Numbered from the stretch's first letter, positions 9,335-48,845 are shown. The stretch is 64,000 bases of DNA from Candidatus Uhrbacteria bacterium (GCA_016188425.1 JACPHX010000016.1:22161-86160); one strand, 5' to 3'. Notes: generated from the letters alone by a model not told the origin. Translations and numbers: made by a program.

Positions 9335-9559
9335 TTAACGTTGAATGAATGGAATCAACGCCATGATGCGCGAACGCTTCACGGCTACGGCGAGTTGGCG
9401 CTGATGCCCCATGCACACCTTGCTGCGCTTGCGCGCGACAATCTTTCCGAAACTCGAAAGGTAGCGGCGCAACAGGCCGACATCCTTATAATCGATTTCT
9501 TCTACTTTATGCAGACAAAAGCCGCAGACGCGCTTTTTGCCGTTGGTTTGTGATTTCAT
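9335..9559 (-). CDS. rpsR: 30S ribosomal protein S18
   Basis: 74 aa with KRVCGFC...EIDYKDVGLLRRYLS..GKIV.RK..K....QRQLAVAVKRSR. Part of the canonical rpsF-ssb-rpsR order. Confidence 0.9.
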   Translation of the reverse strand: MKSQTNGKKRVCGFCLHKVEEIDYKDVGLLRRYLSSFGKIVARKRSKVCMGHQRQLAVAVKRSRIMALIPFIQR

Positions 9560-9565
9560 ACGCAG

Positions 9566-10057
9566 TTAAAAAGGAATATCTTCCATGCGAATCTCTTCCG
9601 AGGGCTTGGCAGACGGGTCATCTTTTGGTGGGGCAGGTGGCTTGAATGCGGCCGGGGCTCCCTCCCCCCCGACCCCCCCTCGGGCAGGGGGGGACCCCGC
9701 TCCGGAGACGGGAGCTCCGCCTCCTCCTGGGCGATCTAGGAGAATGACATTGTCAGCGACGATTTCGGTGCGGTAGCGGCGGACGCCATCTTGGCCTTCC
9801 CAATCACGGGTCTGGAGACGCCCTTCTATGTAAACCTTTCGTCCTTTGGTGAGATACTGGCCGCAAATTTCTGCCAGCTTGCCCCAAGCTACGACATTAT
9901 GGAACTCGGTCTGTTCCTGCTTTACCCCCTGCGGATCCGTCCATGCCCGGTTGGTGGCCACCGCAAAACTGCAGACGGATTGTCCAGAGGGGATCTGTTT
10001 GAGCTCCGGGTCGCGCGTGGTATTGCCAAGGAGCGTGGCGCGGTTGAGTGAGTACAT
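9566..10057 (-). CDS. ssb: Single-stranded DNA-binding protein
   Basis: OB fold (NRATLLGNTTRDPEL, FHNVVAWGKLAE), Gly-rich linker, and acidic C-terminal tail ending DIPF. Confidence 0.9.
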   Translation of the reverse strand: MYSLNRATLLGNTTRDPELKQIPSGQSVCSFAVATNRAWTDPQGVKQEQTEFHNVVAWGKLAEICGQYLTKGRKVYIEGRLQTRDWEGQDGVRRYRTEIVADNVILLDRPGGGGAPVSGAGSPPARGGVGGEGAPAAFKPPAPPKDDPSAKPSEEIRMEDIPF

Positions 10058-15518: not shown

Positions 15519-15555
15519 AGATAGGAACAGTATACAGCAAGAGGACGGATCTCTT

Positions 15556-19704: not shown

Positions 19705-19752
19705 AAAAAGTCGATAGGAATTACGGGGCTTGGGATAGCTAGGGAAGAAATA

Positions 19753-32634: not shown

Positions 32635-33831
32635 ATGTCATCTTTTTTTGTCCTGGGTTCGCACCCAAGCATCTCCCTGGCCGAACTCATCCAAACCAAC
32701 CCCGCGCTTTCCCCGATCACCGTGCGGTCGAAGGAAATTGCCGTCTCTGAATCTGCATTGGAAACAGCCGACGCCCGCCGATTAGGCGGTTTGATAAAGA
32801 CAGGGACCATCATCGCCTCCACCGACGGATCCAATCCTGCCCTACTGGAAGCACTCCACATCCATCTCAAAAAACATGGATCCGAGACACGGGCCAAATT
32901 TGGCATAAGCGACTACCGCCCCGGTGCCTCATCCACGGAAAAGATGGGGCTGGCTATCAAATCCCTCCTCAAAGAGGCAGGGACACCGGCCCGGTTCGTC
33001 TCGGCCAAGGAAACAACGCTCTCCTCGGTCATCGTGTCGACGAACAAATTGCTTCCACCCACAGGATACGACTTCTGCCTTTTCCCCAACCCTGACGGTG
33101 GATGCGATATTGGGGTGACCACCTACGTCCAATCCTTCCAATCTTGGTCGCGACGTGATTTCGGTCGGCCGCGCCGCGATGCGAAAGCGGGGATGCTGCC
33201 TCCGAAGCTCGCTCGCATGTTGGTGAACCTCGCCAACGGAAACCCAACCAAAGACGTCCTCATCGACCCGTTCTGTGGCTCTGGCACCGTGCTTATGGAA
33301 GCCGCCCTGCTTGGATATGCACACTTGATTGGCTCGGACATCACTGCATCTGCTGTGGCAAACTCAAAAGCCAACCTCCTTTGGCTCCGCAAAGACGGCT
33401 ATGCCGTGCCTCCGATCCTTCTCATGAAAACTCCCGCCCAAGAACTCCCGGGGCTCATGGCAAAAAAAGCAGACCGTATCGTTGCCGAAGTACATTTGGG
33501 CGCACCAAAACAAGGAGTAGAAACAGAAAAATATCTCCGAGAAGAAATCAAAAGTCTCGCGGTCATGTACACGCAAGTTCTACGCCAGCTTGGACAAATC
33601 GCGAACAAGAAAGCCGTTGCCGTCCTCGCCTTCCCTATATATAGGTTCGGCGGCACCTGGCTTGCGCTCCCCATTAAGGACATCGTCGAGGGAAGCGGTT
33701 GGGCCATCCGGCCTGCGACGGCAAAATGGCCTGATCGCTTTAACCCATCACTTTCTCCCAACGGTGGACTACTCTACGCCCGCAAAGAACAGCATGTAGG
33801 CCGCGATATCATCGTTCTTGAGAAGGTATGA
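32635..33831 (+). CDS. THUMP-type RNA (guanine-N2) methyltransferase, RlmL/Trm11-like class I SAM MTase
   Basis: RlmL-like N-terminus (MSSFFVLGSHPSISLAELIQ), SAM motif I DPFCGSGTVLMEAALLG, and motif IV-like region. Confidence 0.55.
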   Translation: MSSFFVLGSHPSISLAELIQTNPALSPITVRSKEIAVSESALETADARRLGGLIKTGTIIASTDGSNPALLEALHIHLKKHGSETRAKFGISDYRPGASSTEKMGLAIKSLLKEAGTPARFVSAKETTLSSVIVSTNKLLPPTGYDFCLFPNPDGGCDIGVTTYVQSFQSWSRRDFGRPRRDAKAGMLPPKLARMLVNLANGNPTKDVLIDPFCGSGTVLMEAALLGYAHLIGSDITASAVANSKANLLWLRKDGYAVPPILLMKTPAQELPGLMAKKADRIVAEVHLGAPKQGVETEKYLREEIKSLAVMYTQVLRQLGQIANKKAVAVLAFPIYRFGGTWLALPIKDIVEGSGWAIRPATAKWPDRFNPSLSPNGGLLYARKEQHVGRDIIVLEKV

Positions 33832-34628
33832 TTGGATTCTTCGACTCGGGAGTGGGTGGGCTCACCATCATCGAGGAAGTCCATCGACGGTTGCCCTCCT
33901 ACGGGACTGTCTATCTCGGAGACTCCGCTCGCATGCCTTACGGAGAGAAAAGGCACGACGAATTAGTCCAATTCCTTTGGGAAGGAGCGCAGTGGCTGTT
34001 TGCACGAGGATGCTCCCTTATCATCGTCGCCTGCAATTCCGCCTCCGCGAGCGCGCTGCGGGAGGTACAACAGACAAAACTCTCCTCGTTTCCGGGGCGT
34101 CGCATTCTTGGGGTCATCCGACCGACCGTTGAGGAACTCTCTCATCAAGGATATAAGCGAATCCTTGTGCTTTCGACGACGGCGACCAAAAAGAGCGAGG
34201 CATATGTGCATGAATTTGCTAAAATCAATCCTTCCATCCAGGTCATCTCGCACGCCTGCCCCAACTGGGGGCCGATGGTTGAGGAAGGAAAGGCGGTGTC
34301 TATTGAAATGAAAATCGAGGTGAATCGGGAGCTGTCTCTGGTTGACGATCCGTCAGCAATCGACGCTGTCCTGCTCGCCTGCACACATTATCCGTATGTC
34401 CGTGAGGATGTGGAGGCATTCTTCCTATACAAAATCCCCGTGTTTAACCAAGGAAACCTCGTCGCGAGCTCGTTGGAGGATTACCTCCTCCGACACCCAG
34501 AGATGGAACGGACGCTCACAAAAGACGGGGCGCGCGAGTATTTCACCACCGGAGACGTCGCAAATGCGGATTTCCTGGCATCAAAACGGTTTGGATACGA
34601 TGTCCGGTTCCAAAATACGTTTGTATAA
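33828..34628 (+). CDS. murI: Glutamate racemase
   Basis: IGFFDSGVGGLTI, catalytic Cys motifs ACNSAS and LACTHYP. 266 aa. Confidence 0.9.
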   Translation: MIGFFDSGVGGLTIIEEVHRRLPSYGTVYLGDSARMPYGEKRHDELVQFLWEGAQWLFARGCSLIIVACNSASASALREVQQTKLSSFPGRRILGVIRPTVEELSHQGYKRILVLSTTATKKSEAYVHEFAKINPSIQVISHACPNWGPMVEEGKAVSIEMKIEVNRELSLVDDPSAIDAVLLACTHYPYVREDVEAFFLYKIPVFNQGNLVASSLEDYLLRHPEMERTLTKDGAREYFTTGDVANADFLASKRFGYDVRFQNTFV

Positions 34629-34757: not shown

Positions 34758-35822
34758 CTAGGCGATCCTAAAATGACACACGTCCCCATCCCTCATCACA
34801 TATTCCTTCCCCTCCACCCGCAATTTGCCCGCTTCCTTCGCTCCATGCTCTCCCAGCGCGACAAAATCTTTCCAATCAATAACCTCCGCACGAATAAAGC
34901 CCTTTTCAAAATCCGTATGGATAACGCCCGCGGCTTGCGGCGCCTTCGTTCCTCGATGAATCGTCCAGGCCCTTGTTTCCATTTCTCCTGACGTAAAATA
35001 CGTAATCAACCCAAGAAATCTATACGATTCGCGGATGAGACGATCCAGCCCGGGCTCTGTAATTCCCAATGATTCCAAGATCGGTTTCTGGTCCTCTGGC
35101 GCCATTTCTACAATCTCCGACTCAATCTTGATCGAGAGAGGGACCACTAGCTCGCGATCATTTAACAGAGTCGGAGGAGACGCCAACTGATCTTCACTGA
35201 CATTTAATACGAAAATGACTGGTTTCGCGGTCAGTAACTGAAGCGGCTTGATCATTTCCTTCTCTTTTTCCGTTTCAATGACACTCCGTGCCGATTTTCC
35301 CGTCGAAAGTGCAGCATCAACCTTCAACAAAAAAGCTTCCTCCTCTTCCAACTCCTTTGTCTTCCCAGATTTCATCACTCCATGCACCGCTGTCAGCCGC
35401 TTGCCGACGGCAACCATATCCGCCATCGCCAGCTCGATATCGATAACTTCGACATCACGAAGAATGTCTACGCCACCCTCGACATGATGCACATTTGTGT
35501 CCACAAAGGCGCGGACAACATGCGCGATCATGTCGACTTCTCGGATCGTCGCGAGAAACTTGTTTCCAAGCCCTTCTCCTTTGCTCGCCCCTTTCACAAG
35601 ACCAGCGATATCAACGAACTCGATCGCCGCCGTGATGATTTTTCCTGATTTTGAAACCGCCGCCAGCTGTTTTAGCCGATCATCCGGCACTTCCACTGTC
35701 CCAACATTGGGTTCAATCGTACAAAACGGAAAATTCTCGCAAGGAACTTGTTTTTTGGTGAGCGTTTTGAACAGCGTAGATTTACCGACGTTTGGGAGAC
35801 CGACGATACCGACTTTGAGCAT
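34758..35822 (-). CDS. ychF: Ribosome-binding ATPase YchF (Obg-like)
   Basis: [19 protein letters not shown]1 motif, TGS and coiled-coil domains. Start at the internal Met. The ORF track N-extension to 35900 would overrun an intergenic palindrome. Confidence 0.9.
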
Positions 35823-35967: not shown

Positions 35968-36243
35968 TTAACCCTTTTGTGTCCGGTAAATAGAGTGATC
36001 TCCGACTCGCAACAATACCACCTCGTGATCCCCTAAAAACTGGAATAACACTCGATTTCTAAAATCGACGGAGAATGACCATGTTCCTTTCAAGGGACCA
36101 GATAACTTATGCGTTTTTAAGAGCGGGTGAAACGGATTTTCCTCAAAAAGGCGACCGCGATCTTTCAAAAGAATTTGAATGTCTGACGGTAATTTTTTGT
36201 AGTCCCTCTTGAATTCAGGTGCATAGAGGATAAAGAGATGCAT
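35968..36243 (-). CDS. Type II toxin, RelE/ParE superfamily
   Basis: 91 aa. KLSGPLKGTWSFSVDFRNRVLFQF...VVLLRVGDHSIY is a typical RelE/YoeB-fold mRNA interferase signature. The stop overlaps the upstream antitoxin gene arrangement. Confidence 0.75.
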   Translation of the reverse strand: MHLFILYAPEFKRDYKKLPSDIQILLKDRGRLFEENPFHPLLKTHKLSGPLKGTWSFSVDFRNRVLFQFLGDHEVVLLRVGDHSIYRTQKG

Positions 36244-36246
36244 ATA

Positions 36247-36543
36247 TTAAGCATCCAAATCGTTCCAATCCAACAGACGCTTGGTTTTTCCTTGTTTACA
36301 GGAAGCAAGCGCCTCTTTCACGAGCTTGTCAGTGTGCTTTTCATCCCAGGCGTACCCATCCTCCACCAACGCATTGTAGGTTTCCACATCCAAGACCACC
36401 GCTTCCGGGACACTGTTATTAATAAGAAGAACGGCATCATGCGTCCGTTTCGCCATGTCGAGCACTTTTCGGTAATTCCTCTGAAGATCCCGAACGGAGT
36501 AGGAGGGGGTGATTGGTTGCATAGAAGTATAGATTGCTGACAT
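36247..36543 (-). CDS. Type II antitoxin, Phd/YefM-like
   Basis: MSAIYTSMQPITPSYSVRDLQRNYRKVLDMAKRTHDAVLLINNSVPEAVVLDVETYNAL... 4 nt upstream of the toxin. Start taken at the Met immediately after a TATAAT box (possibly leaderless). The ORF track N-extension is probably spurious. Confidence 0.55.
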   Translation of the reverse strand: MSAIYTSMQPITPSYSVRDLQRNYRKVLDMAKRTHDAVLLINNSVPEAVVLDVETYNALVEDGYAWDEKHTDKLVKEALASCKQGKTKRLLDWNDLDA

Positions 36544-36546
36544 TGT

Positions 36547-36570
36547 ATTATACGTCCAATTGCATGTCAA
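36547..36570 (-). promoter_or_regulatory. Candidate sigma70-type promoter of the TA operon (TTGACA-12-TATAAT-3-ATG; short spacer, leaderless-like)
   Basis: Minus strand reads ttgacatgcaattggacgtataatacaATG. Confidence 0.3.
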
Positions 36571-36713
36571 ACTAATCTGCCAGCGCTCGAGGTTGCACAA
36601 AACATCTATGGAATTCATCGACACCGTGAACGGTTCAAACAAAGTCGTGGGCCAAATTACCAAGGATGATCTGTCTGTTTTCGAAAGTTCTTTAATAATC
36701 TATGTACATTTTC

Positions 36714-36742
36714 TTGACCATGACCTTCCCATGCCGTATTCT
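36714..36742 (+). promoter_or_regulatory. Candidate promoter of tRNA-Ala(GGC): TTGACC-17-TATTCT
   Basis: ttgaccatgaccttcccatgccgtattct, ~20 nt upstream of the tRNA 5' end. Confidence 0.35.
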
Positions 36743-36763: not shown

Positions 36764-36839
36764 GGGCTCTTAGCTCAGTTGGTAGAGCGCTTCCATGGCA
36801 TGGAAGAGGCCAAGGGTTCGAATCCCTTAGAGTCCACCA
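36764..36839 (+). tRNA. tRNA-Ala (anticodon GGC)
   Basis: Cloverleaf folds manually: acceptor GGGCTCT/AGAGTCC with G3:U70, D arm GCTCAGTTGGTAGAGC, anticodon loop ATGGCAT, T arm AAGGGTTCGAATCCCTT, encoded CCA. Confidence 0.9.
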
Positions 36840-36941
36840 CGAACCAAACCTGGTCCATGGTTGGTTAAACCGCAGAGCAACCATCTCTGTGGTTGCCCCG
36901 CCGCCAATCGTCCAGGTACGAGGTTTGATACGTGGTCCACC
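36840..36941 (+). ncRNA. Conserved structured 3' trailer of tRNA-Ala(GGC); homologous to the trailer of tRNA-Ala(CGC) at 47259-47359
   Basis: cgaaccaaacctggtccatggttggttaaaccgcagagca...ccaatcgtccaggtacgaggtttgatacgtggtccacc aligns block-by-block with the reverse complement of 47262-47359. Confidence 0.4.
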
Positions 36942-36979
36942 AAAAACCCCCTTCGATATTGAAGGGGGTTTTTGTTTTT
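36942..36979. terminator. Bidirectional rho-independent terminator (aaaaaccccc-ttcgatattg-aagggggtttttgttttt)
   Basis: Perfect 8-bp GC-rich stem with an A-tract on the 5' side and a T-tract on the 3' side. Sits between the tRNA-Ala (+) and the convergent gene 36986..39358 (-). Confidence 0.75.
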
Positions 36980-36985
36980 ACTCAT

Positions 36986-39358
36986 TTATTCCCCCACCGT
37001 TTTCTTCCCCAGTATCTCCGGGAGATTCTCATTCAATTTTCCCGCCTTCAATCGCGCAAGCCGTGCCTGCGCAAGCTGGTCCTCTGGATTGTACTCGAGG
37101 ATTTTTTCAACCTGTTCGATGGCCTTGGCCCCCTCCTTTTGTCGCTCATAAACCGTTGCCAGGAACCAACGGGCATTCGCGTACCCAGGGAGGAGGTTCA
37201 CGGCATGTTCAAGCGATTGCTGTGCGCGATTCACGTCCCCGTCAGCGTTTCGTCGTAAATACAGCAGACCGAGCTGAAAATAGACGCCGACATCGTACTC
37301 GTTATATCGCGCCACGCTCTCCATTTTACCAATGGCATCATCCATCCGGCCTTGCTGCTGGTAGACAAGCCCAAGCTGGTAGTGCGCCGGCGCATAATCG
37401 GGCTTGAGAATGATGGCCTGATCGAATAGTCCCTCGGCACGTTTGAGCGATTCATCTCGTTTGCGGGTTGCGGCAGCCGCGTCTCCGCCGGCTTTCGCTC
37501 CTTCCGCCACTTCTTTTGCGGCAATCGCCGTCTGGGCCAAACCATACTCAACCGCTACTGCGGGGCTGTTGGGTTCGCGCTCATATGCGGCCGCAAACGC
37601 AAGGAGCGCTCCCGAGGCCGCCTCTGGCAACAGGGGAATGAGCTCTCGTTCCACCTGCCCCAATATGAGCCAATTGCGGGCATTCCCAGGCGCAAGACGC
37701 GTTGCCTCCTTCGCCGCTTCGACAGAGAGCGCGGCGGTATCCTTGAGGGCCGTCTTCACCTCCTCGGGCATCGCCTCTGTGTCCGAATATTCCCCGACTT
37801 TTTCATTCAACAGAAACAGCAAACTTCTGGACAAGTTGCGGACATAGAGGTCGTTCCATCTGTTGAGATCTCTCGCGCGGTCCAGACGCTCCACGACCTC
37901 CAGGATGGACGCATGGGTTCGATCCGATCGGATAGCTTGCGCATAGACGATTTCCGACGCGTAACGCTGCCCGCTGAAAAAGACCAACCATGTTCCCGCG
38001 AACACTCCGAGAACAAAAACGACGATTCTCCATGTGCGTTTCGCTGGCTTGTTTGGGTGAGAGGCCGCCCGTCGATTCTCTTGGAGAGAAACGCCCTGAT
38101 CCCCAACCACAGACAGAGCCGAGAGACAAAAAATGAAAAACCCAAGAAGAACCAGGCTGATTGGATACACAAAGAACAAAACAAAACTCATCACGAAACC
38201 CAATACCCAAGGAAGTTGCTCTGGATCGAGGATTTTCCGTCGGACAAGCTGAAACAGGGTGATGACAGGAGCAACAAGGAAGCACAGCAACCCCAGCCAC
38301 CCGAAACTGGCGACTATATTGAAGAGAAAGGAATAGGCGTGATCGATACGCGTGTCCCAAAATCCAGTTTTTGCCATAGCAGGATCATGGTATTTCGCAA
38401 ACCCGAATTGGAATGTTCCACCTCCGGACCCGAGAAGGGATGAGGAATGGGAAAGAATCTTCGACACGACTTCTTTGGAAGCAGAAAAGGAAGGAGTTGC
38501 TTCCAAGGGAGGATGTACGCCCAAAAAACCAGGGAAGACGAAGAGGAATGCAGAGGCGATAAGGCAAGAAGTGAATGAAACCAATGCCAGTTTATAGCGG
38601 GGGTACCTTGTCGCGTCTGCTATGACCGCAATACATACTATCAAGGATCCGGCTGCGAAAAATCCTAGAGCAAGCCCGTAATCCACTGCGGCAAGGATAA
38701 AAAGCGAGGAAATGGCTGTCACCCAGGTCATGATCGCCTCCCAGAGAGCAAAACGTTCGTGGCGCGTTTGAAAAGGCAGCATCGCCAGCGCGAACACGCC
38801 ATACACCGCTGCAACCAGAGAGAGCTGGTTTGCGGTGCCCACGGAATTCACTCCTGACAGAACCCAGCTGGAAGGAACCAAGATGCCAACGACAGCGAGC
38901 GTCCCCGCACCCGCTCCACCTGTGACCATGGCGTGACGAAACGCACGGCGGAAAGGACTATCCATCCACGCGAATCGAAACGATACTATGGCGCAGAACA
39001 GGCCAATCCACGTCAGCACGCTCTCGGTCTCAATTCCTGATCCGCCAATCCATGAACGATACGGAGTGGACGAGCCCAGTGCCGCCACCGCTGTCACCGC
39101 TACAAAAGCCAATACAGAGAGAACGGAAGGAGGAAAAAGTTTCTGCGCACTGGGCTGCTTCAGTTGGGAACCTAGCACCCCGATAAACGACAAAACGGAA
39201 AGGACAACCAGCATTGTTTGTTTTGTGATTTCAAATGGCTCCAATGTAAAAGGCAAAAACGCCACAGGCATCAACACCGCCAAAGCGATGAGGGACCAAC
39301 GGTTCAATTTCAAAAAAAAGGAGGTGTCCCTCTGCATATGCAGATGATTATATCGCAC
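36986..39358 (-). CDS. O-antigen ligase (Wzy_C)-like polytopic membrane protein with C-terminal TPR repeats
   Basis: More than 10 predicted TM helices in the N-terminal 430 aa. The C-terminal ~250 aa have TPR-like repeats (AHYQLGLVYQQQGRMDDAIGKME...YFQLGLLYLRRNADGDVNRAQQSLEHAVNL...). Confidence 0.55.
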   Translation of the reverse strand: MRYNHLHMQRDTSFFLKLNRWSLIALAVLMPVAFLPFTLEPFEITKQTMLVVLSVLSFIGVLGSQLKQPSAQKLFPPSVLSVLAFVAVTAVAALGSSTPYRSWIGGSGIETESVLTWIGLFCAIVSFRFAWMDSPFRRAFRHAMVTGGAGAGTLAVVGILVPSSWVLSGVNSVGTANQLSLVAAVYGVFALAMLPFQTRHERFALWEAIMTWVTAISSLFILAAVDYGLALGFFAAGSLIVCIAVIADATRYPRYKLALVSFTSCLIASAFLFVFPGFLGVHPPLEATPSFSASKEVVSKILSHSSSLLGSGGGTFQFGFAKYHDPAMAKTGFWDTRIDHAYSFLFNIVASFGWLGLLCFLVAPVITLFQLVRRKILDPEQLPWVLGFVMSFVLFFVYPISLVLLGFFIFCLSALSVVGDQGVSLQENRRAASHPNKPAKRTWRIVVFVLGVFAGTWLVFFSGQRYASEIVYAQAIRSDRTHASILEVVERLDRARDLNRWNDLYVRNLSRSLLFLLNEKVGEYSDTEAMPEEVKTALKDTAALSVEAAKEATRLAPGNARNWLILGQVERELIPLLPEAASGALLAFAAAYEREPNSPAVAVEYGLAQTAIAAKEVAEGAKAGGDAAAATRKRDESLKRAEGLFDQAIILKPDYAPAHYQLGLVYQQQGRMDDAIGKMESVARYNEYDVGVYFQLGLLYLRRNADGDVNRAQQSLEHAVNLLPGYANARWFLATVYERQKEGAKAIEQVEKILEYNPEDQLAQARLARLKAGKLNENLPEILGKKTVGE

Positions 39359-39696
39359 ACCGCATCACGGGAACAGCACAAAACAAAAAACAATACGCAA
39401 AAAAGGCGGGCGTGGGGTCCCGCCTTTTCGCTAGGCAGAACTTGTCCACCTTTGGGCCGAGGCTCGCACTCCGCCCAACCGCTGGACAAGTTCTGCAATG
39501 GAAAGAACGTACGGTCTTTGAGAGACCGGCCCTGCGTGCTTGCAACGCAAGACTGGTCTCTCAAAGGCGTTGATGACGGGATCGCCGGCATCGGGTGGAA
39601 AAATGAGGAACGACCAATGGTCGAACCGCCAGGGCGAGGATCCGCCGCTGGTGTGAAGGCAGGGAAGCCCTCGCATCAGCGGTGGATGTCTCACGA

Positions 39697-42600
39697 TTAT
39701 TCGCTGACTGGGCCAAAGACGATCTCGTCTGGAACAGGGTCAGAGGCAGGGACATCAACCTCCGTCGGGGGAGGATCGGCTGGCTGATCGCCTGTTCCTA
39801 CATCCGTAGACGGATCAGTACCCGCGTCTCCAGATGTGTCTGTGCCGTCGACTGGATCTGGTGCTGTGTTAGTCGTTGTGTCTGTGGTTGTCCCTGCCCC
39901 CTCATCTGCAATCTCATCTATGACCTCCGGCTCATGGTCTTTACGATACGCATACACAACCCAATCGAAGCTGACGCCGTTTTCTGTGCCACCGATTTGT
40001 TGAACGGTGAATCCATTGTTATCGCGCTGCGACACATACAAGGAAACGGGTCCATTTGGAGTGGCGATGACGCGGATAGGAGCAAAAGTCGAGATGATGT
40101 CATTGAAAGCGGGGTTTACCTCTTCAAAGACGATGGTGGCGCTGCCATTTTCCAGCAATCCTTCGCCGACCAAGGTCGCGAACGGTTCCATAGAAACAGT
40201 CGCAACGGTTTCAACATCTTCACCTTGGTAGGATTCGATGACGTTCTTCACGAGACCTTTGGTGACAAAATTTCCTTCTTCATCGATGGCCCACACGCCA
40301 GCAAGGCCGTTGATGCGGCCGACATCGAGGATTTCATTGCCGTGCGCATAGAAACTGCCGTAGAGGTCGAGCTGTGACAAACCGCTTACTCCCGAGGTGG
40401 TGCCAGTGATGGTCTCCGTCCCAGGAATCGATTCTGATTCCCCAGTAAACAACGATGTTTGGACAAAGACGACGATCAAATCATCGGCGGCACCGCTTGT
40501 ATATGGTTCCAACGCGTATCCGACGATCATGCCCGATTCCGTCGCTTTCATGGCGACACCTGGGGTGGAAGAGGCGGTGAGGGGATCGCCGATCGCGATA
40601 TCGCCATTTTCGTTTGATACTCTCGTTGGCACGCGCCCCATAAGGGCAACGGGGTAGTGACCGGGGAGATTTTCACCTGCGAGAAACCCTGGCTTGGTGG
40701 AGATAATGCCGGCGAGAATTTCATCAGCGGAACCGGTGCTCTTCATGATAGTTTCGTTTCCCGCCACGGAGAAAGCGACGACGTCCCCAGGGACAAGGGA
40801 GGCGGCAGATGGGAACATTTCCGCGAAATCATAGGAACCAGTGCTCCAACCGGAGGCATTGGTGCGCATCATGTCGCCGCCCGGACCTTCTGAATTATCG
40901 TAGAAAATATATTTATCCATTTGCTTCGTGCCGCTGGCGGATGGATAGAGCTTGCCGCCGATCACGATATCGCCATTGAGTTCAGCTGTGCCGAGATTGT
41001 TGATGAGGGCGACTTCTTGATCTGAAGCGTCCTTGACGGATAAGCGATAGTCCGTCGTGGAGGTGGTCGCCAAGGAGAGGCTCATGGAGACACCATCCGC
41101 ACTCGTCGTGTCTGTATTCCATGCGCTTCCACGGAAGACGAACGCCCGCGAATCAACCGCCGTGGCGATTTCCGTCGCCGTTCCTTCCGCCGACAGCACG
41201 GCAGCCGTGGCCAGCGAAATCATCGAGCCGTCGTTGCCGATCGCCATGCCGCTGTGCCACGAAGGCTGCACATACACGCGAATCGTGCCGACTCCAGGCC
41301 CATTCCATGCATCAAGGGCGATGCCGACCACCATGCCGGGAAGAGTGGATTTCATGCCCGCGCCAGCGGTCGAGGAAGAGGTGATGGGGTCGCCTGGGCG
41401 AATTACTCCGTTCTCATCGCTCACTTTCAGAGGAACGCGGCCGGCGGTCGCGATGGCTTTCGGATACGTGGCTGCATCTATCACGCCGCGGCCATAGCTC
41501 TGTGCCGGCGAGGTGGAGACGATACCGACGATGCGTGATTCGTAAGGGGTCGAGGATTTATCGAGAACGGTCAGATCACTGACGATCTTGCCTCCCGTGA
41601 GGACGCCGGTGAGCGGTTCCACTTCATCCGCCTCGTAGGTGATGGTGGCATCCGTGGCAACGACCAAGTCTCCCGCGGTTTCATCACCGGTTGTTTCATA
41701 CCATTCCGCGATGTCATCCGGAGCCCCGGAACAGACGACGAGTTCGCGATCCGTGGCCGTGGTATCCGAATCCGCCCCGCTGTGACAGACGCCGTTGGTG
41801 GTGGCGGCCCCGTTGAAATCAGTCTTGATGACTCCGTTCACGTCCAAGATCGTGGCGCCGATGGCGATAGTGCCGTCGGTACCGTCGTTGTCGATGGTTT
41901 CGCCTTGCTGGAGGGTGATGTCGGTGGTCATCCGATTGCCGGCACCGTCTCCTAAAACAAGACCATTGGTAATGGTGCCGCTCGTTCCGTTTATTTTGAT
42001 TCCATTGGTCATTCCAGAGGTCCCGGTACTATCAATAAACAGGCCGTTTGTCACCACAACATTTGCTCCATCACCCGTAGGATCTGCGTTGTTGATATAC
42101 ACAAGGGTATCGACCAATAGATCCGAAGAACTGGAAGTGGATTGATTTTCCACACGCAGGACGCGCTCTGTTGCGCCTGCAGTTGACGTGCTTTGAGTCC
42201 AAGGAATATCGATGCCGATATCTGTTCCTCCGCTCGCGCCATGTACATTCGTGATATTGAATTTGTAGGCCGAGAATCCTGAAGCACCGTTATTATGTCT
42301 TGACGTGAGATCAAGAACAGAACCTGTTGAAAAATTATTGGCTCCGCTCGTGAAATTCACGATATCGCCTGCTCCAAACGAGCTTCGGGAAAGCGAGAAC
42401 ATGTTTGCGGCGGCGGTATTGCTCGTGAATCGGAACGTCCCATCGTCCTCATTGTCGATGGTCTGACCGCTCTGCAGTTTGAAATCTGTGATCATATCAA
42501 CCTCCCCAGAACTGAAATCGATCCCCGTAAGCACCCCATCAGTCACCTTGTATCCAACTGTTGCTGTGTTTGTACCGGCCAAATCGATATTAATACCATT

Positions 42601-45600
42601 CGTAATCCCATCGGCGATCCCTCCTGAATTCAATATGTTGATGGCATTGGTTGCTTTCACGCTTTGCGTGGCGGTCGTGTCGTCATTATCCAATACGAGC
42701 AAAGTGTTAATGGCGAGATCGTCATTAGTCGCCGTATCTTCTACCACATGGATCTCAAACACCTTTTCCTGACTTCCATTAAATTCTGAGTCTTGCTGCC
42801 AGGCAAAATCGTATCCCCAGATATTATTGGAACCTCCTCCGCTTGTTGCATTTACAGTCTTAAATTTATTAGCAGTAAACCCGAAACTTGTCCCATCGTG
42901 CCGTGAAGTGACATTGAAGGCGCTCCCCACTGAATCGAAGTATCCTGTAGAGGAGGCATAATTGATCAGGCTTCCGGACATGCTTGCCAAATCATGATCA
43001 AAGGTCAATACATTCGCGCTATCGGTCGTGTTTGAGGTGAGCTTCAGGGTTTGCGTGGAAAGATTTATGACTCCCAGCGTTGCGTTATCAATACGCGAAA
43101 CACTTGCCGAGCTTGCATCGTAATCTCCCCGCAACCGAATTTCGGCCGTTCCAGTAAAATCTGTCGCAGTTACTGACGTATTATCAGAAAAATTAATTCC
43201 ATAGCCGACTCCGTCCAATATGGTAATGCCATTGGCAAATCCGTTGCCCGTCATCGCCTCCCCGATCTTGATACCGTGCGAAAAGACATCTGTATTATCT
43301 CCGGTATTGGAAATCTCCAGGGCTTGCGATATGGTCATGTCTTGCGTAAGAGTCGTATCTGAATTATTCAATCGTAATAGCGACTGGATGTTTGTATCAG
43401 AGTTTCCGCCGGAATCGTCTTCGATATTCCGGATATCCACGACAATCTCGTTTCCCCCATTGAATGAGGCGCTGTTTTGCCAGATAAAGTCATACCCTTT
43501 CGAACCGGCGGCACCGCTCCCTGACTGATTATTGATGATATTAAATTCTCCAGCGGTGAAACCGGGTCCGTTATGCGATGATGTCACATTAAAAACACGC
43601 CCCGTCCCATTGAGGGACGATGTTGTCGATACATCAAAAATATCGCCGGATGTTGCCCCGGATGTAATCTGAATTGCCTGCCCGCCGGATGTCTGCGTCC
43701 CGGTAGTGATCGCAAGAGCGGTGCCGGTGGTCAGTGCGCTTGTGTTGATATTGATGCCGGTCCCTGAAGACATGGAGGTTGCATCCAATACAATACCCGA
43801 CCCCGTAGTGGCTCCCGAAGCAATGTGGATTGCCTCTCCTCCGGCTATTTGCGTTCCAGTTGTCATTTCGATACCTGATCCGGTAGTCAATGATGATGCG
43901 GTGATCCCAAGCGCGAATGCGGTTGTTGCAAAACTATCGATATCAAACGTGCCATCTGGTGTTGTGTCGTTTATACCGACTCTTCCTGCAGATTTATCAA
44001 GATACAAATCGTCCGTAAAAAAGGCGATGTCGCCGTCTGACGTTGCGTCCGTACCGAAGTTAAAAATACTGGAGACGCTATTGTACGACAACGTCCCTTC
44101 ATTTGTTGCCGTATCGCCGACGTGAAGCGTGGCTCCGTCCAAATACAAATCCCCCCATCGCAACGCACTCGTACCAAGATCGAGCGTGCCGTCGGCAGAA
44201 GGGACGATCGCCGAACTCACACGGCTCACAAACGAAACCGTATCGGTCGTCGCGTCACCAAGCGTCACATTGCCGTTGAATGTGCCGACGCCGGCATTCG
44301 TCATGGTGAACAAATCGGTCCCGGCGCTATTTTCAAATACAACGAGGTTTGTGGTTTGTGCCGCATTCGCCTGCACGAGGAATTGGATTTCATCCGCGTT
44401 TCCGTCCACGGCCAAATTGGCAGAGAGGTTTGTCGCCGTACCGACCGTGACGTTATCCGTGGCGGTCGTGAGGCGCACAAGCGTGCCATCGTCGGTCCAG
44501 CCGCCGCCACCACCCGCGCCGATTTGCACGAACGAGGCGCCGTTGTACATGTACAAACCATCCCCCGTGGCATCCCAAACAATATCCCCCTCGGCTGTCC
44601 CCGTGACGGAGGATGGCGCGCCCGCATTCGTGGGAATGTTCAACCCGACGTTCGCCGCATGCGCGGCCGTGTCGACTCGTTTCGTCGTAACGACATTGCC
44701 GGAGGAATCAACCGTAAACAGGTCACCGGACCCGACCGTAAACAAGGCAGCGGGGGTTGCATCGCCGATACCGACAAATCCGCTGTCAGCGAACGTCACA
44801 AATGGGGTTCCCGCATCCGCGATGGTAAAGTCGCCCGTCGTCGTCAGGTTGTAGGTGAGACCCGTTGCATCGTCGATTTCCATGGTCAAATTCGTATTGG
44901 TGATGGATTGCGCGTACACCTCGTCGAAATCGGGAGTCGAGACGCTGCCCGCCAAATCCGTCCACGTCGTTCCCGCGTCTCCCGCGCTGGAATTCACCCA
45001 CAATTTTCCCGTCTGATCCAGATAAATAGAGCCGGACTCTGCCGAGTGGGAGGGGGTTCCCGTTCCGGTTTGGATATCGACTTCGTCTGCATTCGTACTG
45101 TCTGTCAATCGGATGAAATTCGTATTCTCAGCGTCAACGATGTCGATATGCGTATCCGGAGCCGTGGTTCCCATGCCAATCCACCCATTTACATCAACGA
45201 CGAAATCGTCCGGGCCGAAATAGCGGATCGGAAAGGCGGCCACAGAGGCAGATGCCGATAAGTCATCAATGGCCAGCCCATAAAAATTCCCAACGACTCC
45301 GGTACTGGAGGCAAATGTGTCATTGATGGTCACTGCATAATAATCCGTAATATCTCCCGCCCCCGTGAGCAATGGTCGGGTGATGACTCCGTAGGCAGAA
45401 GTTATATCTCCAGAAGATTCGTTGACTACTTGCGCGCTCACGGCCATGGCACTCGTAATAGGATCCGGTCCTCCTCCGACCGCTTGGTTGCTCACGACAG
45501 ATTGCACGCCAGTCAAAGTATCTACGGCATTTATCAGCCCTGTCTTTGCAATAGATTGAAAGTATCCTGCCGTGGACGCATATCCTGCCGCCCCTGGGCT

Positions 45601-46914
45601 GAATTGATTCGAGACGCTCAGCACGCGCGTCGCGTCGGCCGTAAGATTTTCTGATACATGCAGCACCCTGTCCGCCCCCGCGACTTCTCCCAAATCTCCT
45701 CCTGTGAACCGATTTCCCATGATGCCGTGGCCTGTCACGAGATAATCGCCGGCGACAGTAAGATTTTCCGTTGGCGTCGTATCGCCAACTCCAACGAATC
45801 CAGTTGATTTGTCCATGTATAAATCATCCGTAAAAACGGCGATGTCTCCATTGGTTGTGGAATCGGTTGCAAGATTCAGGACATTCGTCCCCGTATCATA
45901 GGAGAGCGTTCCTTCATCCGTTGCGGATGTCCCAATATGGAGGGTGGCCGGGCCCAGATACAAATCCGACCATCGTTCCCCGGTTGTCCCTAAGGAAAAA
46001 GTATCGTTGGCAAGAGGAATGATGTTGCCATCTGCTGCCAGTGTCCCCCCAGCGGTGATATAAAACTCAACCTGGTCATTTGTCCCCGCATCGGAAAGAA
46101 TTTCAATCATCCTATCATTTGTATCCGCCGATTCGCTGTCAATGTCTACAATAGCGTCGACATCCGTTCTATTCGTCGACGTATTGACGATATTCACAGC
46201 TCCCGTAAGCGCAAGGTCTGCATCCGACTCGGTTACGAGTACGGAAGAAGCTGCCCCAGTCTGCGTCGCATCGAATCCATCGAGATTATCCGCATTCATT
46301 GTCCACGGTGTTGCAGACAATCGAATGCGCGGAGTCATCTCTGCCGTGTCGGGCGAGATGGCTATCCCAATATACCGATCCGATACGGAATTGAACAAAT
46401 TGTTTGGAAGCACGTTCTGCCCGGAGTCTCCTAATAATAAGGAAAAGACACCGTCGACGACCGGAACGGAAATGGCCGCGTCCGGCGTATCGCCTCCACA
46501 ATCAATGGTGGCTGTGTTTGCGTCTGTGTTTCCAGCGCTCCATAAACAAGTACCGCCCGTGGAGGCGGTATAAATGGCGAACATCATGGAATACGAACCA
46601 TCATCCACCGTTACGCGCAATTCATTCGTGATTTTAGCTTGAAAAGAGACTACGTTAGGGACACCGACGGCCGCTTGTGCCGAAAAAGGGAGGAGTGTTG
46701 GCGCGACAAGCATGGACGCCAGCACAAAGACACACTGCATCCAACCGGACGCAATCCTCCACGAACAATCCCTAGGATGACGGTGTGTCATACCTCCCAC
46801 GTCGGCAAAATAAAATCGTGGAAATGCCATTACCTGGCAAACCCCACGATTCAGGCCTATTGGCCACTTACCGTCCTGCAAATGCATCATACCATGAAAA
46901 CAAATAGTAGTCAA
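39697..46914 (-). CDS. Giant repetitive surface protein, 2405 aa; paralog of ORF 19753..29388
   Basis: Signal-like MQCVFVLASMLVAPTLLPFSAQAA. N-terminal 140 aa, the GGGGWTDDGTLVRLTTATDNVTVG module, the DLGxxxxRWxDLYLGPATLHIGTSAT module and both C-terminal ~150-aa domains are shared with the 3211-aa protein. Divergent, acidic Pro/Thr-rich C-tail. A later start at the Met before the signal region (~46791) is possible. Confidence 0.8.
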   Translation of the reverse strand: MTTICFHGMMHLQDGKWPIGLNRGVCQVMAFPRFYFADVGGMTHRHPRDCSWRIASGWMQCVFVLASMLVAPTLLPFSAQAAVGVPNVVSFQAKITNELRVTVDDGSYSMMFAIYTASTGGTCLWSAGNTDANTATIDCGGDTPDAAISVPVVDGVFSLLLGDSGQNVLPNNLFNSVSDRYIGIAISPDTAEMTPRIRLSATPWTMNADNLDGFDATQTGAASSVLVTESDADLALTGAVNIVNTSTNRTDVDAIVDIDSESADTNDRMIEILSDAGTNDQVEFYITAGGTLAADGNIIPLANDTFSLGTTGERWSDLYLGPATLHIGTSATDEGTLSYDTGTNVLNLATDSTTNGDIAVFTDDLYMDKSTGFVGVGDTTPTENLTVAGDYLVTGHGIMGNRFTGGDLGEVAGADRVLHVSENLTADATRVLSVSNQFSPGAAGYASTAGYFQSIAKTGLINAVDTLTGVQSVVSNQAVGGGPDPITSAMAVSAQVVNESSGDITSAYGVITRPLLTGAGDITDYYAVTINDTFASSTGVVGNFYGLAIDDLSASASVAAFPIRYFGPDDFVVDVNGWIGMGTTAPDTHIDIVDAENTNFIRLTDSTNADEVDIQTGTGTPSHSAESGSIYLDQTGKLWVNSSAGDAGTTWTDLAGSVSTPDFDEVYAQSITNTNLTMEIDDATGLTYNLTTTGDFTIADAGTPFVTFADSGFVGIGDATPAALFTVGSGDLFTVDSSGNVVTTKRVDTAAHAANVGLNIPTNAGAPSSVTGTAEGDIVWDATGDGLYMYNGASFVQIGAGGGGGWTDDGTLVRLTTATDNVTVGTATNLSANLAVDGNADEIQFLVQANAAQTTNLVVFENSAGTDLFTMTNAGVGTFNGNVTLGDATTDTVSFVSRVSSAIVPSADGTLDLGTSALRWGDLYLDGATLHVGDTATNEGTLSYNSVSSIFNFGTDATSDGDIAFFTDDLYLDKSAGRVGINDTTPDGTFDIDSFATTAFALGITASSLTTGSGIEMTTGTQIAGGEAIHIASGATTGSGIVLDATSMSSGTGININTSALTTGTALAITTGTQTSGGQAIQITSGATSGDIFDVSTTSSLNGTGRVFNVTSSHNGPGFTAGEFNIINNQSGSGAAGSKGYDFIWQNSASFNGGNEIVVDIRNIEDDSGGNSDTNIQSLLRLNNSDTTLTQDMTISQALEISNTGDNTDVFSHGIKIGEAMTGNGFANGITILDGVGYGINFSDNTSVTATDFTGTAEIRLRGDYDASSASVSRIDNATLGVINLSTQTLKLTSNTTDSANVLTFDHDLASMSGSLINYASSTGYFDSVGSAFNVTSRHDGTSFGFTANKFKTVNATSGGGSNNIWGYDFAWQQDSEFNGSQEKVFEIHVVEDTATNDDLAINTLLVLDNDDTTATQSVKATNAINILNSGGIADGITNGINIDLAGTNTATVGYKVTDGVLTGIDFSSGEVDMITDFKLQSGQTIDNEDDGTFRFTSNTAAANMFSLSRSSFGAGDIVNFTSGANNFSTGSVLDLTSRHNNGASGFSAYKFNITNVHGASGGTDIGIDIPWTQSTSTAGATERVLRVENQSTSSSSDLLVDTLVYINNADPTGDGANVVVTNGLFIDSTGTSGMTNGIKINGTSGTITNGLVLGDGAGNRMTTDITLQQGETIDNDGTDGTIAIGATILDVNGVIKTDFNGAATTNGVCHSGADSDTTATDRELVVCSGAPDDIAEWYETTGDETAGDLVVATDATITYEADEVEPLTGVLTGGKIVSDLTVLDKSSTPYESRIVGIVSTSPAQSYGRGVIDAATYPKAIATAGRVPLKVSDENGVIRPGDPITSSSTAGAGMKSTLPGMVVGIALDAWNGPGVGTIRVYVQPSWHSGMAIGNDGSMISLATAAVLSAEGTATEIATAVDSRAFVFRGSAWNTDTTSADGVSMSLSLATTSTTDYRLSVKDASDQEVALINNLGTAELNGDIVIGGKLYPSASGTKQMDKYIFYDNSEGPGGDMMRTNASGWSTGSYDFAEMFPSAASLVPGDVVAFSVAGNETIMKSTGSADEILAGIISTKPGFLAGENLPGHYPVALMGRVPTRVSNENGDIAIGDPLTASSTPGVAMKATESGMIVGYALEPYTSGAADDLIVVFVQTSLFTGESESIPGTETITGTTSGVSGLSQLDLYGSFYAHGNEILDVGRINGLAGVWAIDEEGNFVTKGLVKNVIESYQGEDVETVATVSMEPFATLVGEGLLENGSATIVFEEVNPAFNDIISTFAPIRVIATPNGPVSLYVSQRDNNGFTVQQIGGTENGVSFDWVVYAYRKDHEPEVIDEIADEGAGTTTDTTTNTAPDPVDGTDTSGDAGTDPSTDVGTGDQPADPPPTEVDVPASDPVPDEIVFGPVSE

Positions 46915-46984
46915 GATATTAATTAGCTAATTTTAGATTAATAACTGATCTGTCGTTCTGCTCTGTCTCCAATTTGCGCACGAC

Positions 46985-47025
46985 TTATCCACAGGAAGTA
47001 TTTTTCAATAGTGCCTTGTGGATAA
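46985..47025. promoter_or_regulatory. 11-bp inverted repeat TTATCCACAGG-N18-CCTTGTGGATAA in an AT-rich region 70-110 bp upstream of the 2405-aa giant gene (candidate operator)
   Basis: Seen directly. Flanked by AT-rich promoter-like sequence. Confidence 0.3.
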
Positions 47026-47065
47026 CTTTGTGTCTACACTACTCTAGACAAATAGAAAACCGAAC

Positions 47066-47098
47066 AACTAAAAACCAGTTTCTTATGAAACTGGTGCG
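47066..47098 (-). terminator. Rho-independent terminator on the minus strand (accagtttc-ttatg-aaactggt followed by TTTTTAGTT), end of the tRNA-Arg/tRNA-Ala transcription unit
   Basis: Perfect 9-bp stem. The T-tract on the minus strand corresponds to aactaaaaa on plus. Confidence 0.55.
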
Positions 47099-47225
47099 TT
47101 GAAAGACCTATTTCATGGAAAAGAACTACCCCGCCGCAAAGCGGACGTGGTATCAAATGACAGAGAACAATCCTGAAATAGACTGACGCGGTAGAGCCGC
47201 CGAGGTATTGGACCTTGAGGGAATA

Positions 47226-47258
47226 AACAAAACCCCTTCGATGCGGAAGGGGTTTTGC
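47226..47258. terminator. GC-stem terminator hairpin aaaacccctt-cgatgcgg-aaggggtttt, sequence-related to the terminator at 36942-36979
   Basis: Minus strand gives the hairpin plus TTTTGTTT. Confidence 0.6.
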
Positions 47259-47359
47259 GGGAACCATGTACCAAACCTGGTGCCTGGAGGATTAGTGGCA
47301 GGGCGACAACAAACGTATGTGCTCCGTGGTTTAACCACTCATGCACCAGGTTTGGTACG
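47259..47359 (-). ncRNA. Conserved structured 3' trailer of tRNA-Ala(CGC): 16-bp stem (gtaccaaacctggtgc / gcaccaggtttggtac) enclosing a ~56-nt loop
   Basis: Inverted repeats at 47270-47286 and 47343-47359. The loop contains GTGGTTTAACCAC. Homologous to 36840-36941. Confidence 0.4.
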
Positions 47360-47435
47360 TGGTGGACTCGAGGGGAGTCGAACCCCTGACCTCTGCAATG
47401 CGAATGCAGCGCTCTACCAACTGAGCTACGAGCCC
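47360..47435 (-). tRNA. tRNA-Ala (anticodon CGC)
   Basis: Minus strand GGGCTCGTAGCTCAGTTGGTAGAGCGCTGCATTCGCATTGCAGAGGTCAGGGGTTCGACTCCCCTCGAGTCCACCA. G3:U70, anticodon loop TTCGCAT. Confidence 0.9.
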
Positions 47436-47531: not shown

Positions 47532-47607
47532 TGGTGTCCCTGGAGGGACTTGAACCCCCATCTCATCCTTAGGACGGATTTGCTCTATCCAGTTGAGCGA
47601 CAGGGAC
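47532..47607 (-). tRNA. tRNA-Arg (anticodon CCT)
   Basis: Minus strand GTCCCTGTCGCTCAACTGGATAGAGCAAATCCGTCCTAAGGATGAGATGGGGGTTCAAGTCCCTCCAGGGACACCA. Anticodon loop GTCCTAA. Confidence 0.85.
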
Positions 47608-47705: not shown

Positions 47706-48845
47706 ATGGATATTGGCATTCTCCCTATCGCACTCGCCCTTGTTCTCTTGGGTCTGGTTGCGGTCATCGTCTTTCTTGTCCGAAAACAATCCTCTGGAAG
47801 CGCGACCGGATTGAATGCAGACCAACTGATGCAGCAAATCCACGAGATGCGACGCGACATGCAATCAATGACATCGCAAGGGCGGCAGGAAGTGCAATCG
47901 CGATTAGATCATATACAAAAAGAGTTGACGAGTAATCTCACCGAGTCCCAGCAGAGCATGCAGCGCCACTTCGCGCAGTCGGCAACGGTTATTCGTGACG
48001 TGACGGAAAAGATGACGACGCTCGATTCGACCAACAAGCAAATCCTCGGATTTTCCGAGCAGCTCACGAGCTTGGAGTCTATTCTCAAAAATCCTAAACA
48101 TCGAGGAATCCTTGGTGAATATTGGCTGGAAACGCTCTTGAGTCAAGTCCTGCAACCCACGCAGTACAAGATGCAATACGACCTTGGGATCGACGGCGGC
48201 GGCGCCCGCCTTGTCCCGGATGCCGTCATCTTCATCCGTGACATGATCATCCCGATCGATTCCAAATTCTCTTTGGAGAATTACAATAAAATCATGTCGA
48301 CCGACGATCCGGCACTGCGCGAATCCCTCGAGCGTGATTTCAAATCAGATGTAAAAAAACGAATAGACGAAACATCCAAATACATCAACCCCGAAAAAGG
48401 GACGACGAATTTCGCCTTCATGTTCGTCCCGGCCGAGGGTGTCTACCACAATCTGGTGAGCTCAAGCGTCGGCGCCGTAAACGTAAATACAAGGAGTCTT
48501 ATAGAGTACGCGTTTGAAAAAGGAGTCGTGATCGTGGCTCCCACTTCCTTCTTCGCCTACCTTCAGACGGTCATCATGGGACTCAAAGCCCTCAAAATTG
48601 AGGAGTCGGTAAAGGAGATCCAGCGGCGCTCCGAGGAGCTCATGCGGCATCTCAAGGCCTACGAGGATTATCATAATAAGCTAGGAAAACACATAGAGAC
48701 CACAATGCGTGTTTACTCTTCCTCCTCCAATGAACTCAAAAAGATCGATAAGGACATTTATCGTATCAGCGAAGGTCGCGCCGGCAAACTCCTCACCCCC
48801 CTCGCCATCACCCGCGAAGAAACGCTTGACGAGATTCAGAGCTAA
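47706..48845 (+). CDS. rmuC: DNA recombination protein RmuC
   Basis: N-terminal TM, long coiled coil, and C-terminal RmuC nuclease-like domain (FAFMFVPAEGVY...VVIVAPTSFFAYLQTV). Confidence 0.85.
   Translation: MDIGILPIALALVLLGLVAVIVFLVRKQSSGSATGLNADQLMQQIHEMRRDMQSMTSQGRQEVQSRLDHIQKELTSNLTESQQSMQRHFAQSATVIRDVTEKMTTLDSTNKQILGFSEQLTSLESILKNPKHRGILGEYWLETLLSQVLQPTQYKMQYDLGIDGGGARLVPDAVIFIRDMIIPIDSKFSLENYNKIMSTDDPALRESLERDFKSDVKKRIDETSKYINPEKGTTNFAFMFVPAEGVYHNLVSSSVGAVNVNTRSLIEYAFEKGVVIVAPTSFFAYLQTVIMGLKALKIEESVKEIQRRSEELMRHLKAYEDYHNKLGKHIETTMRVYSSSSNELKKIDKDIYRISEGRAGKLLTPLAITREETLDEIQS

Follow-up and report, generated by a model that had tools for sequence, protein, structure and literature searches.

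Homologous palindromic trailers behind two convergent tRNA-Ala genes of a Candidatus Uhrbacteria bacterium: a probable MITE-like insertion

Introduction

Why should two different tRNA genes of one genome be followed by the same long, structured trailer? The question is raised by a 64,000-nucleotide stretch of DNA from a Candidatus Uhrbacteria bacterium (GCA_016188425.1, JACPHX010000016.1:22161-86160; hereafter the window, with positions counted from its first letter), in which a tRNA-Ala(GGC) gene (36764-36839, plus strand) and a tRNA-Ala(CGC) gene (47360-47435, minus strand) are oriented convergently around a segment of 10.4 kb. Both genes encode their CCA end and were recognized by ARAGORN and Rfam, and behind each of them lies a homologous trailer of about 135 nt, which consists of a hairpin followed by an intrinsic terminator. 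An earlier note on this DNA, made by a model from the sequence, had pointed to these trailers, had taken their conservation beyond the tRNA to imply a function, and had considered the enclosed segment to be accessory and its ends to be compatible with an old insertion or inversion boundary.

The analysis reported here indicates that the feature is real but most likely ordinary, namely a small, lineage-specific palindromic insertion behind both tRNA-Ala genes. In our judgement, it is probable that this Uhrbacteria lineage alone received an imperfect palindrome of about 95 bp, placed exactly where the tRNA-Ala CCA end meets the terminator, and that the palindrome represents a small, non-autonomous element that resembles the miniature transposable elements with inverted repeats known as MITEs. 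It should be noted that the insert is called MITE-like and is not a proven MITE.

Results

The trailers behind the two tRNA-Ala genes are collinear and alignable over about 135-150 nt. Counted from the discriminator base through the whole hairpin, 79 of 102 positions are identical without any gap, and the divergence of 23% excludes an assembly artefact; in addition, an independent assembly (Logan contig, L026) gives the CGC copy at 100% identity. In the window, the 29-nt block ACCAAACCTGGTNCATGNNTGGTTAAACC is present at exactly two places, and it did not appear once in 100 shuffles. The folds of trailer plus terminator have z-scores of -6.4 and -7.5, and those of the hairpin alone -2.8 and -4.5. 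Thus, the homologous structured trailers of about 140 nt that the earlier note had described behind the two genes were confirmed by both alignment and folding.

The hairpin proper corresponds to a palindromic insert of 95 nt, delimited by alignment and fold, which lies at 36840-36934 on the plus strand in the GGC unit (copy 1, CGAACCAAACCTGG...GAGGTTTGATACGTG) and at 47265-47359 on the minus strand in the CGC unit (copy 2). A covariance model (CM R1) made from the hairpin scores the two at 119.9 and 121.1 bits, respectively. The insert starts with CG(A/T)ACCAAACCTGG and finishes with CCAGGTTTG(A/G)TAC(G/A)TG, and its terminal inverted repeats, CAYGTACCAAACCTGGTGC, extend over 16-19 bp. In copy 2, these repeats form a perfect stem of 16 bp (GTACCAAACCTGGTGC, 47343-47358 pairing with 47268-47283), which had been noticed before, and the loop enclosed by it comprises 59 nt, not the 56 nt given at that time. 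The arms of copy 1 have decayed, match the consensus arm at 13-14 of 16 positions, and leave four positions unpaired within what is a perfect 16-bp stem in the other copy. The 16-mer repeat arm has four matches in the window, namely the four arms, compared with an expectation of 0.24.

Both trailers contain the conserved blocks ACCAAACCTGGT, TGGTTAAACC and TCCAGG.AC.AGGTTTG.TAC.TGGT, and their centre is variable. Substitutions were found at 10 of 68 positions in the ends versus 13 of 34 in the centre (Fisher p = 0.011, with boundaries set post hoc). The insert has no coding capacity beyond a three-codon frame, ATG-NNN-GGT-TAA, which is located in both trailers within the conserved CATG..TGGTTAAACC (MVG and stop, 36857-36868, plus strand; MSG and stop, 47331-47342, minus strand) and is probably meaningless.

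The junction between tRNA and insert is most informative in the GGC unit. The last eight bases of the tRNA, GTCCACCA (36832-36839, after ...GA), recur exactly 95 nt further on, at 36935-36942 on the plus strand, where they are directly followed by AAAA and the terminator; this second occurrence is read as a target-site duplication that marks the original junction of tRNA end and terminator. Together with the preceding G, it forms GGTCCACCA, the 3' end of the tRNA-Ala(GGC) of related genomes, and deletion of 36840-36934 and one repeat restores a CCACCA-AAAA-terminator junction as it is found in these relatives and in other tRNAs of this genome. The duplicated part of the tRNA 3' end comprises 6-9 bp, GTCCAC(CA), and since GT opens the flanking repeat and AC(CA) closes it, the inverted repeat runs into the ACCA of the tRNA. 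In the CGC unit, sequence and alignment reveal a degenerate counterpart, GTTCCCGCA (47256-47264, minus strand).

Each unit is closed by an intrinsic terminator. That of the GGC unit has a 15-bp stem followed by a T-run (36941-36974, plus strand) and is convergent with the neighbouring gene for a protein with tetratricopeptide repeats (TPR), the stop of which is at 36986; that of the CGC unit, CAAAACCCCTTC-CGCATC-GAAGGGGTTTTG (47228-47257, minus strand), has a homologous stem. The stem sequence AAAACCCC(C)TTC is common to both and present nowhere else in the window. A genome-wide terminator consensus was rejected as the cause of this likeness, because AAACCCCTTC was found only at these two terminators in the window. 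The terminators of the relatives all differ, the nearest being two GGC-side ones, AAAACCTCCG (L060) and AAACACCCCCG (L054). The tRNA-His and tRNA-Arg(TCT) genes of the window run straight into their terminator, with no hairpin between.

Because the sole terminator lies downstream of the trailer, the position of this terminator makes it almost certain that the trailer is co-transcribed with the tRNA-Ala, as had been proposed. Folding of the whole precursors retained the cloverleaf in both cases and let the trailer stem begin at A73, so that not one base is left unpaired between the two. In the GGC precursor, ACCACG (36836-36841) pairs with CGTGGT (36931-36936), and the stem of the CGC copy reaches the ACCA of its tRNA with one mismatch.

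Syntenic loci of other Uhrbacteria were obtained via homologues of RmuC and YchF. Four represent the CGC side (L027, L029, L032 and L059, all with the order RmuC, tRNA-Arg(CCT), tRNA-Ala(CGC)), and four the GGC side (L054, L055, L056/L057 and L060, all with a giant gene, the TPR gene, tRNA-Ala(GGC), YchF and a methyltransferase gene). The hairpin is absent from all eight loci. At seven of them, only 0-2 nt separate the CCA end from an A-tract and the terminator stem, and L056 has neither a hairpin nor an immediate terminator. In SCUM01000001.1, a single record that comprises L032 and L055, the two tRNA-Ala genes are likewise convergent and lack the hairpin. The covariance-model search that the earlier note had recommended covered about 264 kb of Uhrbacteria DNA, with the window also scanned with filters off, and recovered only the two copies of the window. 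As far as these data reach, the relatives' tRNA-Ala loci, which had also been named for checking, are thus free of the hairpin, an outcome that the earlier note had listed as counting against its reading, but the relatives are not close: amino acid identity is 64-70% for RmuC and about 70% for YchF, the next-best database matches are at 64-71%, and the databases contained nothing closer.

The tRNA genes themselves have a different history from their trailers. In the relatives, the orthologue of the window's tRNA-Ala(GGC) is the tRNA-Ala(GGC) flanked by the TPR gene and YchF, and that of the window's tRNA-Ala(CGC) is the tRNA-Ala(CGC) beside tRNA-Arg(CCT) and RmuC. The GGC gene shares 67-69 of 76 bases with the GGC genes of the relatives, versus 64 of 76 with the CGC gene of the window, which in turn has 64-68 of 76 bases in common with the relatives' CGC genes; the anticodon arms are class-specific. 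Judged from these bases, the tRNA-Ala bodies are old orthologues that group by isoacceptor rather than with each other. This grouping implies that the homology of the trailers is younger than both tRNA genes and was acquired later.

Three observations on these loci stand apart from the hairpin. In L032, a second, 5'-truncated tRNA-Ala(CGC) is located behind the functional gene and its terminator (about 9400-9575, minus strand, SCUM01000001.1); its D-arm, CGC anticodon arm, T-arm and CCA are recognizable, it has a terminator of its own, and it carries two GC-rich palindromic inserts (~62 and ~53 nt) at the positions of the D-loop and the variable loop, so that small palindromic insertions near tRNA-Ala are present also in another Uhrbacteria lineage. 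The tRNA-Ala(GGC) gene has the orientation of the TPR gene and YchF in L054 (9428-9503), L056 (3094-3169) and L060 (3885-3960), and the opposite orientation in L055 (9802-9877) and in the window (36764-36839), and thus the cassette of tRNA-Ala(GGC) plus terminator has been inverted at least once among Uhrbacteria. A further locus, L058 (2785-3800), has the tRNA-Arg(CCT) and no tRNA-Ala(CGC) at the syntenic place, where the spacer is AT-rich and contains a (CTTT)n microsatellite and two small open reading frames (ORFs).

The segment between the two tRNA-Ala genes contains a gene for a 790-amino-acid membrane protein with C-terminal TPR repeats (36986-39358, minus strand) and a giant ORF of 2405 amino acids without a family match (39697-46914, minus strand). 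Orthologues of the former occupy the same place in the relatives (33-37% identity to L054, L055 and L056 in tblastn), and an orthologue of the giant ORF adjoins the TPR gene there (C-terminal 300-680 amino acids 47% identical to L054 and L055). Because the orthologues of both genes hold the same positions in the relatives, the gene order identifies the segment as ancestral synteny and not as an accessory island, at variance with the earlier description. The label "O-antigen ligase" given to the 790-amino-acid ORF likewise found no support in Pfam or NCBIfam: only TPR families matched, at the C-terminus, and the hydrophobic N-terminal ~600 amino acids had no match in either database.

The interval at 46915-47227 is shorter in gene content than its counterparts, as five relatives (L027, L029, L032, L058 and L059) have three extra genes (about 301, 309 and 1082-1252 amino acids) between tRNA-Ala(CGC) and the giant gene adjacent to the TPR gene, and at least L029 and L032 have a second giant gene there (2733-2814 amino acids); the window has none of them. 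An exact repeat of 30 bp is shared by the 2405-amino-acid giant (45717-45746) and a 3211-amino-acid ORF (27795-27824, within 19753-29388), and this suggests that the giant genes contain paralogous modules. Three further giant ORFs are located within 10755-29388.

Discussion

Evidence for an insertion includes the empty site at the orthologous loci and the repeated tRNA end around copy 1. The palindrome would have entered between the tRNA-Ala CCA end and the terminator and would have generated a target-site duplication. For the second copy, at the CGC gene, two routes can be envisaged: either ectopic gene conversion, initiated at the similar 3' halves of the tRNA-Ala genes, copied a block of insert, displaced tRNA end and terminator from the GGC locus, or a second, independent insertion into the same target took place. 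The homologous terminators favour copying, and thus the sequences weakly suggest a transfer of the block from the GGC to the CGC locus. The combination of conserved ends and a variable centre is typical of members of a MITE family and fits two insertions.

The insert would be transcribed as a 3' trailer and form a rod-like hairpin that starts at the discriminator base and pairs with the ACCA end. Because such a hairpin hides the CCA end, release of the mature tRNA should require an endonucleolytic cut within the duplex. By analogy with co-transcribed Correia elements, this would probably be an RNase III-type cut in the duplex of 16-21 bp, followed by exonucleolytic trimming to the encoded CCA. 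A function of the insert itself is not required by the data.

Like a MITE, the insert is small and non-coding (95 nt) and has terminal inverted repeats. The presumed target duplication, GTCCACCA, is identical at 8 of 8 positions around copy 1 and only degenerate (GTTCCCGCA) at copy 2. Several points, however, weigh against a MITE-like insertion. Only two copies were found within the 64-kb window (CM R1, filters off), both at an equivalent site and in the same orientation to the tRNA, whereas a MITE family should be dispersed, and the window contains neither a transposase nor a parent insertion sequence (IS) with matching ends. The pattern of conserved blocks CCAAACCTGGN{4,14}GGTTAAACC had 25 matches among the GTDB species genomes and another 20 among the JGI metagenomes, every one a chance match according to BLAST and inspection by eye (for example, L004 is a coding sequence), two patterns had no match in viral contigs, and BLAST against phages and plasmids yielded nothing; the block-pattern scans demand exact conserved blocks, so that diverged homologues would escape them, and they are not exhaustive. 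The degenerate repeat of the CGC copy is a further weakness, as is the boundary between inverted repeat and duplication, which is ambiguous by 1-2 nt. Selection is possible in view of a divergence of 23% without an indel and of ends that are more conserved than the centre. Lastly, the relatives are distant, and ancestral presence followed by loss is a formal alternative.

If selection has kept the trailer, it could be a functional RNA, either a small RNA of the 3' external transcribed spacer (3'-ETS) type derived from the tRNA-Ala precursor, or a hairpin that serves processing or quality control by sequestering the CCA and controlling the maturation of both tRNA-Ala. Such a role would be in line with the collinearity of the copies and the block structure of their conservation, with the common architecture of both precursor folds, in which the stem begins at the discriminator base, with the strong terminator that each copy has of its own, and with the restriction to two genes of one amino-acid specificity. 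Nevertheless, we regard it as unlikely, because the hairpin is missing from 8/8 syntenic loci, where the covariance model had no match either, and no other copy emerged from the scans of genomes, metagenomes and viral contigs or from the phage and plasmid searches. Its pairing is also not visibly maintained: there are no compensatory pairs between the two copies, and the four stem-breaking positions of the GGC copy are uncompensated, with the reservation that two sequences (n = 2) are too few for a proper test of structure conservation. Rfam adds nothing in its favour, as only tRNAs reached the gathering threshold in the whole window, and in a relaxed search with the GGC copy only, the best sub-threshold matches were on the terminator (rimP leader, 25.8 bits versus a threshold of 47). 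Given the absence from relatives, the lack of compensatory changes and the lack of an Rfam family, the earlier step from a conserved trailer to a function is not supported. A related proposition, to which we assign a distinctly low probability, is that the insert is one of two things: a mobile element with the CCA/terminator junction of tRNA-Ala genes as its specific target, or a cis-acting RNA module, confined to this lineage, on which the two tRNA-Ala precursors of this reduced-genome bacterium depend. In the latter case, discriminator and CCA would be buried in a helix that stacks on the acceptor stem, gating 3'/5' maturation or CCA repair of tRNA-Ala.

Two other origins of the trailers can be judged by the same comparisons. 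A decayed tandem duplicate of tRNA-Ala, of which nothing but the terminator and the 3' end GGTCCACCA can still be recognized, would have a precedent in the 5'-truncated, interrupted second tRNA-Ala(CGC) behind the functional gene in L032, and the GGC trailer indeed finishes in GGTCCACCA; yet local alignment of trailer and tRNA on both strands was no better than that of shuffled sequences (294-492 of 500 scored as high or higher), no second tRNA match appeared even at E <= 10, and the trailer is an inverted repeat, unlike a decayed tRNA. This explanation was already disfavoured and is very improbable. Scarcely any credence can be given to the view that the tRNA-Ala genes and their trailers are the ends of an inserted or invertible accessory segment of 10.4 kb, although it is enclosed by the two units as an inverted repeat about 210 nt long with roughly 80% identity, and the varying orientation of tRNA-Ala(GGC) among the relatives indicates that local inversions do occur. 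In relatives, the orthologues of the giant and TPR genes are likewise flanked by these two tRNA-Ala genes, no integrase or transposase is present in or beside the segment, its GC content is unremarkable, and L032 and L055 have the same arrangement without a hairpin. Moreover, the repeats of the tRNA end that integrative elements leave behind are direct and not inverted, and the direct repeat found here bounds only 95 nt. Thus, the idea of an insertion in the earlier note has held, with the qualification that the inserted piece would be the hairpin of about 95 nt instead of the 10.4-kb segment.

General features of bacterial MITEs and imperfect palindromes are among the subjects reviewed in PMC10969869 and PMC3184786. 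The MITE-like insert resembles the Correia elements of Neisseria, the enterobacterial ERIC and the pneumococcal RUP in its length of about 100 bp, the absence of coding capacity, terminal inverted repeats of 16-26 bp, an apparent short target duplication, and its location at an intergenic, transcribed site. It differs from them in that only two copies are seen, which have their type of site (the tRNA-Ala CCA/terminator junction) and their orientation in common, with no sequence similarity to known elements, no parent IS, and a clear duplication in one copy only. The RNA hairpin of Correia elements is co-transcribed and is a substrate of RNase III. Small hairpin elements with a fixed orientation at a specific short target, often near terminators, are also found among the palindrome-associated elements derived from IS200/IS605 and among REP elements, but no TnpA or RAYT gene was seen in the window. 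Elements of these kinds have subterminal hairpins and are not known to produce a target duplication.

The trailer can also be compared with two systems that involve tRNA 3' ends. Like 3'ETS-leuZ of E. coli, it is a segment that separates the last tRNA from the terminator and would be transcribed together with the tRNA and released by processing. 3'ETS-leuZ is short, and its function as a sponge of small RNAs has been shown experimentally, whereas the trailer lacks conservation in relatives and is known from sequence alone. With integrative elements that use tRNA 3' ends as att sites, it shares the duplication of the tRNA 3' end downstream of a functional gene; in contrast to them, the "island" is about 95 bp long, forms a palindrome in its own right, and encodes no integrase. 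The reading as the att-site scar of an island was rejected. Two further candidates did not fit. A T-box-like element was suggested by the pairing of UGGU with ACCA beside a terminator, but there was no match to a T-box model and no aminoacyl-tRNA synthetase gene downstream, and a transfer-messenger RNA, an SRP RNA or a Y-RNA-like element had no support from ARAGORN or Rfam.

If the trailers are indeed a MITE-like insertion, they constitute a clean, small case of a palindromic insertion between a tRNA and its terminator in a bacterium of the candidate phyla radiation, with the empty sites kept in relatives, and they would imply that a long hairpin pairing with the CCA end is tolerable in tRNA precursors. 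For annotation, it follows that the region should be listed neither as a new small RNA family nor as a genomic island. The feature would matter more if the insert were targeted to tRNA-Ala or needed for its processing, the RNA-processing pathways of Patescibacteria being poorly known.

Surroundings of the tRNA-Ala genes

The content of the window is that of a core chromosome, with genes for FtsK, RecA, EF-P, YchF (34758-35822), RmuC (47706-48845), HolA, PolA and a Xer-type recombinase. Its RmuC and YchF are 100% identical to proteins listed under Candidatus Uhrbacteria at NCBI. The tRNA-Arg(CCT) gene recognized by ARAGORN at 47532-47607 on the minus strand precedes the co-oriented tRNA-Ala(CGC), with its position 96 nt upstream, and this pair is kept in the relatives. 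Upstream of tRNA-Ala(GGC), at a distance of 22 nt, a consensus scan weakly suggests a promoter-like site, TTGACC-17-TATTCT (36714-36742, plus strand).

Two differences in gene content distinguish the YchF side of the window from its relatives. A ParE/YafQ-like toxin of 91 amino acids and an antitoxin of the Phd family are encoded at 35968-36663 on the minus strand, between YchF and tRNA-Ala(GGC), where no such pair is present in the relatives. A gene of the Asp/Glu racemase family (33828-34628, plus strand) is located between the methyltransferase gene and YchF, which are adjacent to each other in L054, L056 and L060.

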